From NCBI GenBank assembly GCA_963717145.1, contig OY970325.1, forward strand, positions 3,456,001 to 3,520,000: a stretch of DNA of 64,000 nucleotides, written 5' to 3'. The position numbers are program-made. Shown piece after piece: positions 36,001 to 42,000 of the stretch (position 1 is its first letter; every line of letters begins with the position of its first letter). Source of the DNA: an uncultured Armatimonadetes bacterium (lineage in GTDB: Bacteria; Armatimonadota; UBA5829; DTJY01).

Positions 36001-39000
36001 CAGGTCCAGGAGATCGAGAACGAGATCCAGCGGATGGAATGCAAGCCATTCATCAACCCCGGCGTCGAGAGGAAAGTCATCGCCGTATTGGGGGCCCTCG
36101 ATGCGAAGAAGGGCGACCTGGTCGAGCATTTCAGCGCGTTTCCGGGCGTCGCGCGGGTGGACCTCATCTCGCACCTCTGGAAGCTGGCCTCGAGGGAGTA
36201 CCATCCCGCCGACTCGGTGGTCGATGTCGCCGGGGTGAAGGTCGGAGGGAGCGAGGTCGTGGTCGCGGCCGGACCGTGCAGCATCGAGACCGAGGCGCAG
36301 ACGATCGAGCTGGCGCAGATGGTCAAGGCGGCCGGCGCGAAGTTCCTACGCGGAGGCGCATTCAAGCCTCGGACCTCGCCCTATGCGTTCCAGGGGCTCG
36401 GCGAAGAGGGCCTGCGGTTCATGGCGAAGGCGCGCGAGGTGACCGGCCTCCCGGTCGTGACCGAGGTCATGGACACGCATGAGGTCAATCTGGTTGCCAA
36501 ATACGCCGACGTCCTGCAGATCGGCACGCGAAACATGCAGAATTACGCTCTCCTGAAGAAGGTCGGCACGCTCAAGAAGCCGGTCCTGCTGAAGCGCGGA
36601 CTCGGCGCGAAACTGAAGGACCTGCTGATGTCTGCCGAGTACATCATGTCGGAGGGCAACCCGAATGTGATCCTCTGCGAGCGCGGGATCACGACATTCG
36701 AGGATTCCACTCGGAACACGACCGACATCAACGCGATCCCGGTGCTCAAGCATTGGACGCATCTGCCGGTGATCCTCGATCCGAGCCACGCGACCGGCGA
36801 CTGGCGGTACGTCGGCCCGATCTCGAAGGCGGCGGTGGCGTCGGGGGCGGACGGGCTGATCATCGAGGTGCATCCCGACCCGATCCATGCGATGAGCGAC
36901 GGCCCGCAGTCCCTCACACCGGAGAAGTTCGCCGCGCTGATGGATCAGATCCGCCGTGTGGCCTCAGCGGTGGACAGAAAGCTCTAGAACACAGATTGCA
37001 CAGATGAGAAGGCGGATTATACGGAGAAAAGCTTTCTATCAGGAAGCCAGGAATCAAGGAATCCAAGAGAATTGGAAATCCAGCTTTTACCTTCCTGCCT
37101 TCCTGGTTTCCTCATAGATGAATCCGTGCTATCCTCTGCCATCTGTGTGATCTGTGTTCCCCCGAGGTTTGCATGGCGAAGGTTACGCTTATCAACCCGA
37201 ATCGGATGAAGCCGGCGGTGGCGCCGATCGCGCTCGACTACATCGCGGACTGGCTCGATATCGCCGGGCATGAGGTCTCGATCCTCGACCTCTGCTTCTC
37301 TCAGGACTGGGGCGCAGATGTCGATGCCTACTTCGCCGACTGCCAGCCCGACCTCATCGGCGTCACGATCCGGAACACCGACGACTGCTACTTCGCGAGC
37401 CGCGACTTCTTCGTCCCCTACTACAAGGAGGTCATCGACCGCATCAGGTCGCAGACGCCCGCCCCGATCGTGCTCGGAGGCGCGGGACTCTCGGTCGTCC
37501 CCGAGGCGATCCTGGAGTTCACCGGCGCGGACTATGCGATCGCCGGCGACGGCGAGGTATCGATGCCCCTGCTGCTTCACTGCATCGCTTTCGACCTGCC
37601 GATATCCCCGTGCTGGGGGATCGTCTGCCGGACGCCAGAGGGTATCCACACCGAGCCGCCGATGTGGATCAACGTACTGACCCATTCACCGCGAACCAGG
37701 CGCTGGCTCGACAACAAGCGCTACTTCAACGAAGGCGGTCAGGCAGGGATCGAGACCAAGCGCGGGTGCGACCGCAAGTGCATCTTCTGCGCGGATCCCA
37801 TCGGCAAGGGAACCGAGTGCCGTCTGAGGCCCCCGGCGGGCGTCGTGTCGGAGATCAAGGCGCTGCTCGACCAGGAGATCGATGTCTACCACCTCTGCGA
37901 CTGCGAGTTCAATATCCCGATCTCACATGCGGAGGACGTATGCCGGGCGATCATCGAGGCGGGCCTCGGGGAGAGAATCCGTTGGTACACGTATGCCAAC
38001 CCCAAGCCGTTCACCGACGAACTCGCCGACCTCATGGTGCGCGCCGGATGCCGGGGGATCGACTTCGGCGCGGATTCCGGCGACGACAAGGTCCTGCGCT
38101 CGCTCGGGCGCGACTTCAACTCGGACGACGTGCGCCGAACCGCCGAGATCTGCCATCGCCACGGGATCACCTTCATGTACGACCTGCTCATCGGCGGCCC
38201 GGCGGAGACGAATGAGTCCGTCAAGCGCACGATCGACCTCATGAAGCGGATCGAGCCGGACCGCGTCGGCGTCTCGATCGGCGTGCGGGTCTACAACGGC
38301 ACGGCGCTCGGGGAGATGGTTCGCAGGGCGGGTGTCTCGGCCTCGAACCCGACGCTCCATGGGACCATCGAGGGGAACGAGAGCTTCCTCGCGCCGATCT
38401 ATTACCTCTCGCCGGCGGTGGGGATGGAGGTCTTCGGCTTCGTGGACGAACTCATCGGCGGCGACCCCCGCTTCCTGCATGCCTCGCCCGCGGAACTCGA
38501 GGGCAACTACAACTACAACGACAACACAGTGCTCGTCGACGCGATCCGCCAGGGCTTCCGAGGCGCGTTCTGGGACATCCTCCGCCGGGTACAGGCGGGT
38601 GAAGAACCTTCCTAGCAGCCCCGCCTAATCCTGAGTGCGCCTCTGGGCGTGTAACGAAGCACGGTGGAATGAGGCCGTCCTTCGTTACACGCCCAGAGGC
38701 GCACTCAGGATTAGGCGGTTCCCTCGGAGTTACGAACTATCAATGTAACGAACTGTCGCTTCCTTCCGTCTAATCGGTAAACTCGGTGGAGCGGCACTGT
38801 GAAAACGAGATACCTTCTTCTCTGCGCACTGGTCGTGGCGATCGGTGGATCCATCTTCTGTGCGGGTACCTGGTTCGGCAGGCGACAGGCGCCCCGGCAG
38901 ATGCCCGGAACAGTCCGCGCACAGTCCCCCAAGAGCACCAAGCAGCCTCCCAAGCCTGAGCATCCATCCGCCAAGCCTACCCCTGAAGCGACCAAACCGG

Positions 39001-42000
39001 CAGCCGGGCCTTCCCATCCCAGAGCCCGGAGCACCGTCAAGGTAACCGTCAGCGACAAGGAATACGCACGCGGGAAGGTGATCGATCCCTCGGGCAAGGC
39101 GCTCGCGGGGGCCGAGATCACGATCGGCGGCGCGTGGGTGACTCACGCCGTTACAGACTCCGATGGCAAGTTCCGGATCGAGGTCCCGCAGCTCGAATGG
39201 AAGCCTGGCGGGTGAGGCCCCCAGGGATGCACGGCCGGTTCGGTCGTGATGCATATCGAGCACACGGAGAAGAAGCTGGGCTTCGTCCAGGAGATCGATC
39301 GCTACCAACTCATCGGCAAGGGGATCACGGTCAAAGCCGTCCCCGCCCACTCGCCGAAGGTCACTGTCATGGACGTCTGGTGCAAGCCGATTCCCAATGC
39401 GGAGATATGGCTGCGTGAGTTCTACGGCCTGGGCTGGGATGACATACGATGCGGCCAGACCGATGCGAACGGCGAGTACGTCGTCCCCGCGGTCTATGTT
39501 GGCGGGAAGTATGCGTTCCGTGCGGTCGTTCCGGGGTTCTATGGCTATGGGTCCGGCGGGCCGTGCGTCGGCAGCGAGAACTGGATCGACAATGTCGAGG
39601 TCATGCTGGACGCCGCGGAGCACGAGCGCAAGGGCAAGGTGGTGGATGACAAGGGCAAGCCGATCGCGGGCTTCCGGGTCTACACCGACTTCGGGCCGGA
39701 AGCGATCACGGACGCAAAGGGCGAGTTCCTGCTGACCTCGATGCCGAAGGGCCTGGTGATCATCCAAGCACGGAAGGGCGACGTGTGGGGCAGCAATTTC
39801 ATCAAGTCCCGAGTGCTCGACCCCGACAAAAACCCCATCAGAGTCAGCAAGCTCCCTCCCGGCTTCGACCCCGAGAAGTGGTGATATGGCAAGGAAAGGA
39901 AGACTCGCAATGAAGATCATCAGGGCATCTCTGGTTCTCGGTCTGGTCTGCGCGGCCTGGTTCCTGCTCGTGGGACAGCGTCCCACTTCGGCCGCGTCGT
40001 TCATCTCGACCGGCGACGGCGGCTGGGAGTGGGTGAAGCCGACGCCCAGCGTGCAGAACTGGCATGCGCTCTTCTTCCTCGACGACAAGACCGGATGGGT
40101 TGTCGGGTGGGACTGCGCCATCCTGAAGACGACCGACGGCGGGAAGCACTGGGCGCCGCAGGGACCGAGGATTCGAAGAGGCCTGGACTCGGTCTTCTTT
40201 ACCGATACGGACCACGGCTGGGCCGCCGGCGAGGGCTTCGAGGGTCGCGATGCCGTCATCCTCAAGACCGACAACGGCGGCGCCACCTGGCGAGTCGTTT
40301 ATGAGAATGAGAGCGCGGGCCTGCACTCGATATTCTTTGTAAACAATATGGTCGGCTGGGCGGTTGGACGCGATAGCACCATCCTGAAGACCACGGATGG
40401 CGGCGAGAACTGGTTCAGACAGGACTGCGGTGTTCCCTTGCAGGACAAGGGCTTCCGATCCTTTGAGGGAGTCTCTTTCCTGAACGAGCGCACTGGCTGT
40501 CTGGTGGCGAATATCAACGGAGGGGTGGATGTCTACAGGACAACAGACGGCGGCGAAAGCTGGACGCACAAACCCATTCAGGCTGAGGGCCATCCCCGCA
40601 GCATGCAATTCGCCGATGCCAACACCGGCTGGATTCTCACAGGGGCGGTTATCCTCCGAACGACTGACGGCGGCAAGACCTGGTCGGAGATCAGTCTCGA
40701 CAAGGTGATCCCTCCCGACGAGAGGTTTGCGGGAAACAGGATACTCGAGAGCTTCCATTTCTGCGACGCGCGGAACGGTATGGCAGCCACCAACGGTGGC
40801 GCGGTACTGCGCACCAGAGATGGTGGCAAGACATGGGTATTGACCCCCAATGTCGCCGGCGAGACGGTTTCCAGTGCCCATGTGCACATGGTAGATGAGA
40901 AGAACGCATGGGCAGCGGGATACGCCGGCCAGATGATGCGGACATCGGATGGCGGAATGACATGGGAGTCGTTGTCGTCGGGCAGGGACGATTTCACGGC
41001 CCGCGTTTTCTTCGTCAGTGCGACGGTGGGCTGGGCGGTCGGCTCGATCGAGAACTCACGGGGTCCTGGCGGGGTCTTGCTCAAGACTCAGGATGGTGGG
41101 CTGACTTGGAACCGGCATCCTGTGAAGCAATCGAATCGCCTCAATGTCCCCTTCTTCCTGGACACAGAGCTAGGCTGGGTTACCACGACCGAGGGCAATG
41201 TCCTCAAGACGACGGATGGCGGAGCGACCTGGCAGGTGCAGTATACGGGTGTGAAGAGCCACCTTACTGGGGTGCACTTCTTGGATTCCCTTGACGGCTG
41301 GGGCGTGGGAGTGGACGGGGTCATCATCCACACTTCCGATGGAGGCAAGACCTGGACCAGACTCGAATCCCAAACGATGGACGGTCTCTCCGGCGTATAC
41401 TTTGCTGACGAGAGAACAGGCTGGGTCTGCGGAAAGAACGGCCGGATCATGAAGACTGCAGACGGTGGCAAGACCTGGAAACGCCAGCCGACTGGAACGG
41501 TGGACTTCCTGGCGGACATGCATTTCATGGACGAGAAGACCGGCTGGGTCTCCGGCGCAAAGGGCCGTATCCTCAAGACGACGGATGGTAGCGAGACGTG
41601 GACACCACAGAAGTCGGGGAAAGAGGAACAGATCACCGGGATCAGCTTCATCAACGAGAGCGAAGGTTGGGGCGTCGGTCTCGGCACAACAGTGGCGCAT
41701 ACGGTGGACGGTGGGCAGACGTGGTCGGCTCAGGATTATGGGACTTGGAACGGGGTATGGGATGTCGGCTTCACCGATCGAGACAACGGCGTGGCGGTCG
41801 GCGGGCCGATTATCCTCCGCACGACGACGGGCGGACTGCCCGGCGCGGTCTGGGCGAAGAAGCAGGAGGACGGGAAGCCTGCGAACTTCGGCCATCTCGT
41901 GATCACGAAGAAGTCCGACGGCTACCTCCTCGCTGAGCACCCGGACTCACGGGTCGGCATCCACATCAAGACCGCCGACTCGAAGCCAAACGTCGGCGAC

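Follow-up and report, generated by a model that had tools for sequence, protein, structure and literature searches.

A putative selenocysteine-containing repeat protein with a conserved in-frame UGA in an uncultured Armatimonadota bacterium

Results

The window analysed here is a 64,000-nt stretch from the genome of an uncultured Armatimonadota bacterium (genome G000), and all coordinates refer to it (Table 1). Between a B12-binding radical-SAM gene and a BNR-repeat gene, where the survey's finding had placed it, lies an ORF of 138 aa (38799-39215), which is terminated by the TGA at 39213-39215. An ORF of 212 aa (39246-39884) follows in the same frame, and this TGA is the sole stop between the two. 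Reading through it yields a protein of 361 aa with U139 in the sequence KPGG-U-GPQGC. A Shine-Dalgarno-like sequence, GGAG, can be seen directly in the DNA and precedes the GTG start by about 10 nt.

Table 1. Features of the proposed selenoprotein locus and its neighbours
Feature	Position	Strand	Remarks
B12-binding radical-SAM gene	37173..38615	+	upstream, 183-nt gap; under every NCBIfam cut-off
Proposed complete selenoprotein gene	38799..39884	+	GTG start, 361 codons, one internal UGA, stop TGA 39882-39884
N-terminal hydrophobic helix, residues 1-26; signal peptide or signal anchor	38799..38876	+	AlphaFold2 helix 2-26
Pro/Lys/Ala-rich linker, residues 27-84, predicted disordered	38877..39050	+	pLDDT <50 at 25-71 and 73-84
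Beta-sandwich domain 1, residues 89-167, CarboxypepD_reg	39063..39299	+	Pfam PF13620 and modelled strands flanking the UGA
Loop GG-U-GPQGC, residues 137-144, Gly/Pro-rich flexible U-x4-C motif	39207..39230	+	pLDDT <50 at 136-143
In-frame UGA, proposed selenocysteine codon U139	39213..39215	+	GGG-TGA-G invariant in 9/9 aligned sequences
Candidate bacterial SECIS hairpin CACGGCCG-GUU-CGGUCGUG	39230..39248	+	8 bp, GUU triloop closed by G-C
Beta-sandwich domain 2, approx. residues 175-262	39321..39584	+	strands 176-243, pLDDT mostly >88
Beta-sandwich domain 3, approx. residues 263-335	39585..39803	+	second CarboxypepD_reg match and model
BNR/Ycf48-like beta-propeller gene	39886..42108	+	Pfam PF14870, 198 bits; starts 1 nt past the selenoprotein stop

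Using Pfam, we found that the read-through protein matches PF13620 in two stretches with a score of 72.7 bits (gathering cut-off 32.3). The better stretch covers residues 91-130 and profile positions 3-46 of 82 and hence stops just ahead of the UGA; the second lies downstream in frame, as the earlier description of a domain match cut at the TGA had it. In the AlphaFold2 model of the read-through protein (overall pLDDT 80.7), the UGA is flanked by strands of domain 1 (89-95, 106-110, 114-118 and 124-128 before the loop, 148-155 and 160-167 after it), so that the 138-aa product by itself would be half a domain. The shared frame, the lone TGA and the domain spanning it uphold the proposal that the 138- and 212-codon ORFs are one protein, and support a single gene encoding three Ig-like (CarboxypepD_reg/transthyretin-like) beta-sandwich domains. 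Two genes fared worse than one exported selenocysteine protein in every test run. Signal-peptide-like segments also begin the homologues L044, G031, P0008 and P0054, and these hydrophobic N-termini suggest that the protein is exported or membrane-anchored.

The BNR gene, the only neighbour conserved beyond the closest relatives, follows the selenoprotein gene in G006, L042 and G007a as well, and is missing beside the G031 and G052 forms. The radical-SAM gene is present in G006, probably also in L042, and absent in G007, G031 and G052; since it occurs only in the closest relatives, it should not be taken as a functional partner. The conserved synteny that had been reported thus holds for the BNR gene and fails for the radical-SAM gene. 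In G007, the gene comes after an ECF sigma factor and an STN-domain protein.

The TGA was found in the same alignment column in nine distinct DNA sequences (G000, G006, L042, G007a, which equals L043, L044, G052a, G052b, G031 and G007b), where L042 and L044 are metagenome loci and G007 and G052 contribute two genes each. This extends its known conservation in G006, G007 with its paralog and G031 by both G052 genes, L042 and L044. Protein identity to the G000 form ranges from 86% to 26%, and the column holds down to 25-30% protein identity; as the nine sequences are related, they do not represent nine independent events. U is among the 19 invariant columns of the seven-sequence alignment A2. 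At the DNA level GGG-TGA-G is unchanged throughout, while the preceding Gly codon varies, and the G-P-x-G-C codons behind the TGA differ synonymously (GGC/GGA/GGG, CCC/CCG/CCT, TGC/TGT). Such synonymous variation indicates that the stretch from the TGA to the next possible start is under selection as protein. The second Cys of the U-x4-C motif is present in eight of the nine forms, G007b being the one that lacks it.

Public gene calls break at the UGA codon, and they do so on both sides. As had been reported, all six close database matches are fragments of 211-212 aa that start just after the TGA, while P0017 and P0031 terminate at ...EWKPGG. Likewise, the five closest homologues of the N-terminal part of the large form (49-100% identity, 426-465 aa) all terminate at ...DLSGG; a close uninterrupted homologue of the large form was not found, the best match having 26% identity. 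The only uninterrupted close homologue, P0008, carries Arg in an otherwise intact KPGG-R-GPKGC, again in agreement with the survey's finding, and at least one lineage can thus dispense with the residue at the U position.

The survey's statement that no Cys form had been found was overturned, which partly removes the main weakness stated for the selenocysteine reading. In P0114, a C-x4-C motif lines up with U139 and C144 (28% identity, E 1e-14), and P0054 places a Cys opposite the U in G007b (32% identity, E 5e-15), with no second Cys. Such Cys forms are few, and these two are distant (28-32% identity). Among 99 module instances spanning the U column, 41 have a gap in place of the loop and only three credible ones have Cys. 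The loop position is taken up by a Cys-rich insert with CGC...CTCGC in P0027 and by C-x5-CC in P0029.

A hairpin follows the UGA in all nine TGA sequences, with 6-8 bp, a GGUC or GUU loop, a spacing of 22-26 nt and -9.3 to -12.7 kcal/mol. In G000 it lies 22 nt after the UGA (-11.0 kcal/mol), and its G-GUU-C apex bears out the GGU-type loop described before. According to a 2026 selenoprotein catalogue (PMC13188914), bSECIS elements have a loop of 3-9 nt with G as its first or second nucleotide, a stem of 4-16 bp, a spacing of 16-37 nt and an MFE of -7.5 or below, and all nine hairpins lie within these rules. Only 340 of the 167,464 TGA triplets in G000 (0.20%) are followed at that spacing by a GGU-loop hairpin of at least 6 bp. 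Of the 63 cells that make up the 7-bp helix, 88.9% are paired, and two pairs are changed on both sides; sliding the partner lowers the pairing to 16-59%. The paired percentage was reached by 26 of 500 shuffles, and the covariation is modest. The hairpin overlaps codons that are conserved ([AT]-V-[VA]-L), so the protein may account for some of the conservation seen in it. Moreover, the hairpin sits 4-5 nt off in G000 and G006 compared with the other seven, which means that the one conserved SECIS is really two variants.

The genome contains the machinery for selenocysteine insertion. Profile scores in G000 were 383 bits for selB, 567 bits for selA and 392 bits for selD, and a tRNA-Sec with anticodon TCA adjoins selA. 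The selD gene holds an in-frame TGA of its own (GGG-TGA-GGG) and thus is a Sec-containing selD. A selA above the cut-off is present in five of five genomes with the TGA form versus 31 of 53 genomes in the class.

Selenoprotein models of NCBIfam release 20.0 matched neither G000 (E <= 1) nor five other Sec forms (E <= 0.01), in line with what had been reported; the scan of the Sec forms gave generic CarboxypepD_reg-type matches only. Both the motif and the PF13620 domain are missing from the table of 119 selenoprotein families in the 2026 catalogue (PMC13188914). The name SelY, coined in the survey, was not found in the sources searched. The internal UGA is almost certainly read as selenocysteine, and the bacterial selenoproteins would thereby gain a non-enzyme-like family that had not been catalogued before.

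Discussion

Overall, our data support the interpretation as a selenocysteine-containing protein, based on the TGA in nine sequences, the hairpins, the Sec machinery, the domain that runs across the UGA and the broken gene calls. Decoding of the UGA at 39213-39215 as selenocysteine by SelA, SelB and tRNA-Sec is very likely, and the coding-region hairpin 22 nt downstream would direct it. That the TGA is a true stop, separating two genes of 138 and 212 aa or marking a gene inactivated by a nonsense mutation, is highly improbable. Standard gene callers do annotate two ORFs, a GTG/ATG lies 10 codons past the TGA, and the real terminator of the gene is likewise a TGA. However, a nonsense mutation would not hold one column in nine sequences down to 26% identity, the codons from the TGA up to the following start are conserved and vary synonymously, and the first ORF would end midway through a folded domain. 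No promoter-like or terminator-like site was found between the two ORFs, and the SECIS-type hairpin follows the TGA in nine of nine cases against a background of 0.2%.

The UGA could also be recoded by other means, either through near-cognate read-through with Trp, Cys or Arg or as a regulated mix that consists mainly of a truncated anchor fragment, with little full-length protein. Selenocysteine insertion by SelB-dependent decoding is generally inefficient, so that a truncated product is expected beside the full-length one, and Arg is tolerated at the site in P0008. Nevertheless, such recoding is very unlikely, since the loop type and spacing of the hairpin are those of SelB-binding elements, the gene is found only in selA-bearing genomes (5/5), and Cys, the usual counterpart of selenocysteine, occupies the column in P0054 and P0114.

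The selenocysteine gene resembles those decoded via SelB and SECIS, with fdhF of E. coli as the prototype: within 16-37 nt after the UGA comes a coding-region hairpin whose loop has G in its first positions, and the genome has selA, selB, selC and selD. GGUC, the loop in seven of the nine TGA sequences, is also the apical loop of fdhF. Unlike in fdhF-type systems, the protein is neither a molybdoenzyme nor a thioredoxin-fold oxidoreductase. A thioredoxin-fold redox selenoprotein was rejected, because the fold is an all-beta sandwich and the motif is U-x4-C rather than UxxC or CxxU; the selenocysteine would sit in a loop, predicted disordered, that belongs to an Ig-like scaffold domain.

Envelope selenoproteins listed in Table 1 of the catalogue (PMC13188914) include a DUF1573 protein with a UGC motif, an FCYXU-type TonB-dependent receptor, and DsbA/DsbG-like and TlpA-like proteins. 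The present protein shares with these extracytoplasmic selenoproteins the predicted envelope location, and some of them have Ig-like or receptor scaffolds, but no sequence relationship was found.

The selenocysteine very likely occupies a Gly/Pro-rich, flexible loop, GG-U-GPxGC, that is placed between two strands of domain 1, and we propose that the domains may serve as a passive cell-envelope stalk displaying it. The selenol and the Cys five residues on could form a reversible selenenylsulfide and so provide an extracytoplasmic redox centre for the reduction or sensing of peroxides or disulfides, probably together with the translationally coupled BNR beta-propeller protein. The joint reading, a selenocysteine protein with a reactive chalcogen loop on a structural scaffold, is likely. 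Given selenocysteine, a selenol/thiol redox role of the loop is quite possible and is tentatively favoured over soft-metal binding. Counted for it were the resolving Cys in most Sec forms and the thioredoxin-like, redoxin or AhpC domains in five of 52 distant relatives of the repeat scaffold. Counted against the joint reading were the non-catalytic scaffold fold, unlike that of most selenoproteins, and the loop prediction at pLDDT <50, which leaves its geometry not fixed by the model. A strict selenenylsulfide mechanism is weakened by G007b and P0054, which lack the second Cys.

The main alternative to a redox centre is that the loop of a genuine selenoprotein is a ligand site for a soft metal or metalloid, e.g. 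Cu(I), Hg, Cd, Ni or Zn, where Sec and Cys would chelate an envelope ion for capture, detoxification or sensing. The Cys-rich loops of P0027 and P0029 look more metal-binding than catalytic, and the gene order of G007, with its ECF sigma factor and STN-domain protein, resembles that of systems for metal or nutrient signalling at the envelope. The catalogue (PMC13188914) includes several selenoproteins related to metals that have paired U/C motifs. Matches to a NikL-type nickel/cobalt transporter subunit were also obtained (G000, E 0.93; G052a, E 5.5e-5), but both are far below the cut-off. Moreover, alignment A2 has no further conserved ligand residues (His, Met, Asp) around the loop, G007b and P0054 carry a single U/C, and genes for metal transport or resistance are not among the conserved neighbours, so that we consider a metal site rather unlikely.

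The protein has the domain family and the tandem beta-sandwich architecture of CarboxypepD_reg (PF13620) repeat proteins. The best Foldseek matches were the TIE protein (6fwv), streptococcal and lactobacillal pilins and the S-layer anchor SlaB (8qox_B), with low global TM-scores (0.15-0.22) because only single domains superpose. PF13620 repeat proteins, pilins, TIE and SlaB differ from it in having no selenocysteine, and most relatives lack the loop. It is possible, though doubtful, that we see the first structural selenoprotein family of the cell envelope, a passive stalk like a pilin or S-layer anchor with a swappable surface loop that, depending on the lineage, would be of the Sec type (GG-U-GPxGC), Cys or Cys-rich, or absent. 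If so, Armatimonadota of soil, sludge and wastewater would have an extracellular selenol, which could serve redox chemistry or the capture of soft metals or selenium, with substrates possibly passed to the coupled BNR beta-propeller protein.

TIGR04134, the "radical SAM-associated putative lipoprotein", matches one CarboxypepD_reg-like domain weakly, and a radical-SAM gene adjoins the G000 gene. Membership was rejected: G000 scores 31.8 bits (cut-off 39.8) over the 40 residues 272-311 only, a radical-SAM partner is absent in G007, G031 and G052, and the G000 neighbour is of the B12-binding type. The large forms do pass the score, but through just one repeat domain (profile positions 34-93 of 150).

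SelD has an N-terminal Sec loop, G-G-U-G-C-K, that is likewise flexible and Gly-rich with G-G-U-G. SelD shows no homology to the protein; it is a cytoplasmic ATP-dependent enzyme in which the partner residue is the adjacent Cys/Lys and not a Cys five residues away. At the RNA level, both genes of G000 have the context GGG-UGA-GG and the hairpin apex G-GUU-C, which in selD reads CAG-GUU-CUG.

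Reading frame and protein architecture

We found that a TGA closes the 138-codon ORF and that the 212-codon ORF behind it lies in the same frame, this TGA being the only stop between the two (ORF listing and raw sequence). The single frame with its in-frame TGA, on which the survey's finding had based a secreted CarboxypepD_reg-repeat protein, was thereby confirmed, and a recheck of the ORFs, the frame, the PF13620 break and the flanking genes showed that its coordinates and descriptive statements were all correct. When the TGA is read as U, a protein of 361 residues results, with U139 within ...EWKPGG-U-GPQGCTAGSVV.... 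This read-through protein matches PF13620 (CarboxypepD_reg) with 72.7 bits against a cut-off of 32.3. The best stretch (residues 91-130, profile positions 3-46 of 82) ends just before the UGA, and a second one lies downstream of it.

The structure was modelled with AlphaFold2 from a 33-row alignment (pLDDT 80.7, pTM 0.67). Since strands of domain 1 lie on both sides of the Sec loop in this model, a 138-aa product would be half a domain. A Foldseek search against the PDB returned tandem Ig-like stalks resembling the Sec protein, including the B. anthracis TIE protein 6fwv, Gram-positive pilins, SdrD/Cna B repeats and the S-layer anchor SlaB (8qox_B). The global TM-scores were low (0.15-0.22), as is usual when flexible chains of several domains are compared. 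Signal-peptide-like segments are found at the N-termini of the homologues, and the protein is probably exported.

Coordinates of the features discussed (positions in the window unless another sequence is named; residues are those of the read-through protein)
Feature	Position	Strand	Remark
B12-binding radical-SAM gene	37173-38615	+	upstream of the Sec gene
Putative Sec gene	38799-39884	+	
138-codon ORF	38799-39215	+	
TGA (U139)	39213-39215	+	
212-codon ORF	39246-39884	+	
BNR/Ycf48-like gene	39886-42108	+	starts 1 nt after the Sec-gene stop; 740 aa
Second BNR/Ycf48-like gene	42389-44527	+	712 aa
Helix	residues 2-26		AlphaFold2 model
Pro/Lys-rich disordered stretch	to residue 84		AlphaFold2 model
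Three confident beta-sandwich domains	after residue 84		AlphaFold2 model
Sec loop	residues 136-143		pLDDT <50; between strands 124-128 and 148-155 of domain 1
selD (locus L018)	source-genome contig C1:4140327-4141253	-	outside the window
Two further in-frame TGAs	C1 ~1578493 and ~1579984	+	outside the window
ECF sigma factor, 261-aa ORF and STN-domain protein	L045 (G007 contig), 2527-4920		upstream of G007a
Two large Sec-form genes in tandem	L047 (G052:C3:1184000-1203000), ~6444-11530		

Conservation of the TGA codon

Nine of 61 related genomes gave a match at E <= 1e-5. The search also covered the class (53 genomes) and a sample of 401 genomes of the phylum, which was queried once with the protein and once with a module HMM. 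TGA-bearing homologues were present in five genomes of the class, namely the source genome (G000), G006, G007 (two genes, a and b), G031 and G052 (two tandem genes, a and b), and neither the protein nor the HMM search of the phylum sample found a further TGA form beyond these. G007 belongs to the same family as the source organism. Three more loci came from a scan of JGI metagenome contigs, namely L042 (79% identity), L043, whose sequence is that of G007a, and L044 (47% identity), so that nine distinct TGA-bearing sequences are available. In a seven-sequence alignment of the module, where identity to the source protein falls to 26-30%, the U column is among 19 invariant columns. Downstream of the TGA the codons show synonymous variation (GGC/GGA/GGG, CCC/CCG/CCT, TGC/TGT), as would be expected of translated sequence and not of a spacer between two genes.

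Loop sequences of the TGA-bearing forms
Form	Loop	Remark
G000, G007a	KPGG-U-GPQGC	
G006, L042	KPGG-U-GPKGC	
L044	TYG-U-GPQGC	
G052a	LSGG-U-GPSGC	
G052b	SGGG-U-GPSTC	
G031	LSGG-U-DPTGC	
G007b	EFG-U-GEPAIPPG	no Cys

In G031 and G052 the Sec forms are secreted, measure about 850 aa and contain many CarboxypepD_reg-type domains, only one of these repeated modules having the Sec loop. The second Sec-form gene of G052 shifts frame upstream of its loop, and selA of this genome, which is rated only 60% complete, is in two pieces; both may be assembly errors rather than biology.

Public gene calls break at the same codon. Of the database proteins, the nearest six (70-88% identity) have 211-212 aa and begin with M/V-[ML]-H-[IV]-E, immediately behind the hairpin. 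Among 1,019 matches at E <= 1e-3 in a library-wide protein search, P0017 (143 aa) and P0031 (92 aa) terminate at ...QLEWKPGG, while many fragments of 185-212 aa and 381-393 aa start right behind the loop position; P0025 is the post-UGA part of G052b, and P0014, P0015, P0032, P0040, P0048, P0049, P0051, P0066, P0073 and P0087 likewise have post-loop starts. For the first 451 residues of G052a, the five nearest matches (100, 70, 56, 52 and 49% identity; 426-465 aa) all terminate at ...DLSGG, and for its loop region no uninterrupted protein closer than 26% identity was found in the length range searched. These fragments, which are known as proteins alone, provide indirect evidence; their ends meet the TGA codon from both sides.

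A hairpin after the UGA and the machinery to read it

The sequence GGG-TGA-G is invariant in all nine sequences, and the Gly codon one position further upstream is variable. Seven of them have in common a hairpin, GCNGCNC-GGUC-GNGCUGC, 26 nt after the UGA, whose GGUC loop is also found at the apex of the SECIS of E. coli fdhF. The source gene and its G006 counterpart instead have CNCGGCCG-GUU-CGGUCGUG, 22 nt after the UGA. Energies range from -9.3 to -12.7 kcal/mol, and all nine hairpins satisfy the consensus rules for bacterial SECIS elements as quoted in the 2026 review PMC13188914 (loop 3-9 nt with G in the first two loop positions, stem 4-16 bp, spacing 16-37 nt, MFE <= -7.5 kcal/mol).

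Base pairing holds in 88.9% of the 63 cells of the 7-bp helix, where two pairs are altered on both sides (G-C/A-U, G-C/C-G). Sliding the 3' partner by 1-3 columns lowers pairing to 16-59%. Covariation is only modest, since shuffling of the columns attains this level of pairing in 26 of 500 trials. The background rate is 0.20%: 340 of the 167,464 TGA triplets in the source genome are followed by a matching hairpin, defined as a stem of >=6 bp and a loop of 4-5 nt that starts with GGU, 16-37 nt after the TGA. None of the 40 differences listed, out of 219, between the window and X2, a 6,921-nt sludge-metagenome contig of a relative, falls within 39204-39254, the stretch with the UGA and hairpin. 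X2 is about 88% alike and elsewhere differs at about one position in nine, and we regard this as a hint of conservation. A promoter and terminator scan, for sigma-70 consensus sites only, returned nothing between the two ORFs and is weak evidence. An Rfam scan of 39150-39350 gave no family for the hairpin, its lone lncRNA match (E = 10) being due to chance. Among the public sequencing runs listed, none contained more than 9% of the sampled words and none was of RNA; the reads of four metagenome runs yielded relatives' contigs only.

The source genome, a single contig of 5.37 Mb, contains selB (383 bits, cut-off 242), selA (567 bits, cut-off 268) adjoined by a tRNA-Sec with anticodon TCA (70.6 bits, confirmed by ARAGORN), and selD (392 bits) with one in-frame TGA of its own. 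Hence, the organism makes selenoproteins. In selD the Sec context is TGGG-U-GCKVGP, and its codon context, GGG-TGA-GGG, matches the GGG-TGA-GG of the gene described here. The G-GUU-C apex of the latter's hairpin also resembles that of selD (CAG-GUU-CUG, about 33 nt downstream of its TGA). Two more TGAs in this genome lie in-frame within two adjacent long frames (...KYKYCI-U-HNE... and ...KGSCG-U-HSE...), each with a downstream hairpin; they come from a noisy scan only, and their U-H motif is that of formate-dehydrogenase-type selenoproteins. A loose genome-wide scan for TGA, hairpin and open frame gave 697 candidates, mostly noise in this GC-rich genome, and was dropped as a census of the selenoproteome.

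Taken together, the conserved TGA column, the bSECIS hairpins, the Sec machinery and the gene-call breaks support the survey's reading of the UGA, which is very probably a Sec codon. Sec would be inserted by SelB and its Sec-tRNA, bound to the hairpin that lies 22 nt after the UGA (26 nt in most relatives).

Cys, Arg and loop-less forms and the possible function of the loop

The sole uninterrupted close homologue, P0008 (375 aa, with the architecture of G007a), reads KPGG-R-GPKGC. A single TGA-to-CGA change would account for the Arg of P0008, which is known from its protein sequence. We aligned the module HMM to 160 proteins and found that 99 instances span the U column, with a gap in 41, Gly in 13, Arg in six and Cys in four; the conserved motif surrounds the Arg only in P0008. 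Three Cys forms are credible: P0054 (SPG-C-EPPG), P0114 (DPD-C-GRSE-C) and P0027 (a Cys-rich insert). The Cys of P0125 looks spurious, and 52 further proteins contained no additional Cys form. BLASTP places the two Cys of P0114 opposite U139 and C144 of the source protein (28% identity, E 1e-14) and the Cys of P0054 opposite the U of G007b (32% identity, E 5e-15). Cys homologues, the classical criterion for Sec, are therefore present, if thinly. The loop can best be seen as an insertion that is specific to certain lineages, within a module that is itself widespread.

The Pfam lists of distant relatives show the repeat fused to ECF sigma-factor domains (P0175, P0177, P0183, P0184, P0195, P0203), to BlaR1-type M56 peptidase domains (P0186, P0202, P0211) or, in five of 52, to thioredoxin-like, redoxin or AhpC domains (P0162, P0178, P0198, P0212, P0213). 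These varied fusions suggest that the CarboxypepD_reg repeat is a general extracytoplasmic stalk or sensor module, sometimes with thiol-redox domains.

Provided that Sec is inserted, we tentatively favour a redox role, at somewhat less than even chances, because a Cys is paired with the Sec and because relatives have thioredoxin-type fusions. The selenol, on a flexible Gly/Pro loop, and the Cys five residues further on, present in eight of the nine Sec forms, might form a reversible selenenylsulfide at the cell envelope. The main alternative, somewhat less likely, is that the loop binds soft metals; in its favour, P0027 and P0029 have Cys-rich inserts at this loop. G007b and P0054, each with a single U or C, tell against a strict model of any kind, as do the Arg form and the numerous relatives without the loop.

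Comparison with known selenoproteins

The great majority of bacterial selenoproteins are redox enzymes of the cytoplasm or periplasm. According to the 2026 review PMC13188914, a thioredoxin-like fold and a UxxC or CxxU motif are found in most; here, by contrast, Sec would lie in a disordered loop of a probably exported, non-catalytic Ig-like scaffold. NCBIfam release 20 gave no selenoprotein family for the source protein or five other Sec forms, and membership in TIGR04134 was rejected (31.8 bits against a cut-off of 39.8). Neither PF13620 nor a U-x4-C GGUGP motif occurs anywhere in Table 1 of PMC13188914, which covers 119 selenoprotein families or subfamilies, and the words 'carboxypeptidase' and 'CarboxypepD' are absent from the article. 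Full-text literature searches found neither selenoprotein with carboxypeptidase regulatory-like nor selenocysteine with PF13620; the one paper listed for selenoprotein with Armatimonadetes concerns Planctomycetes genomes. The passages of the deep-Sep paper (PMC12013277) that were searched mention none of these terms. We therefore regard the protein as representing a new family of an otherwise well-known kind.

Nothing about the recoding mechanism is out of the ordinary. What is unusual is the protein around the Sec, a structural, exported scaffold without a thioredoxin fold, in which the Sec occupies a disordered loop. If the Sec reading holds, the selenoprotein catalogue gains a family, the selenoproteome extends to Armatimonadota, and at least 15 public gene calls truncated at the TGA codon need correction. 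One loop and its 19-nt hairpin, together with the natural Cys, Arg and loop-less variants, would then also be a small, transplantable test system for the purpose of a selenol at the surface. These variants make this well-supported new selenoprotein family testable; no new principle is involved.

Gene neighbourhood

The source genome and G006 have in common the order URO-D-like gene (minus strand), DAHP synthase, B12-radical-SAM gene, Sec gene and BNR gene(s). On L042 a 504-aa ORF lies upstream and a BNR-like start downstream, and in G007 a BNR gene directly follows the G007a Sec gene. Upstream of G007a, the unassigned 261-aa ORF overlaps the end of the ECF sigma factor, and the 343-aa STN (secretin/TonB N-terminal) protein directly precedes the Sec gene, an arrangement that resembles a trans-envelope signalling cassette. 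The G031 and G052 forms have neither a radical-SAM nor a BNR neighbour.

The radical-SAM gene was rejected as a functional partner, being conserved among close relatives only; just the BNR beta-propeller gene is kept beyond these. The best NCBIfam matches of the radical-SAM protein were tryptophan 2-C-methyltransferase (274 bits, cut-off 500) and a ladderane-type lipid radical-SAM protein (238 bits, cut-off 360), below all cut-offs. For the BNR protein, gene order is what suggests a partnership with the Sec protein. The adjacent BNR gene is translationally coupled to the Sec gene. The two BNR genes of the window are tandem paralogues encoding Ycf48-like beta-propellers, with a common C-terminal tail, ...VWAKKQ.DGK.ANFGHLV..K.S.GYLLAEHPDSR.GIH.K...GDYIYIHGKIATE.GEKIIAADSIDIMCAGWGILPEK.
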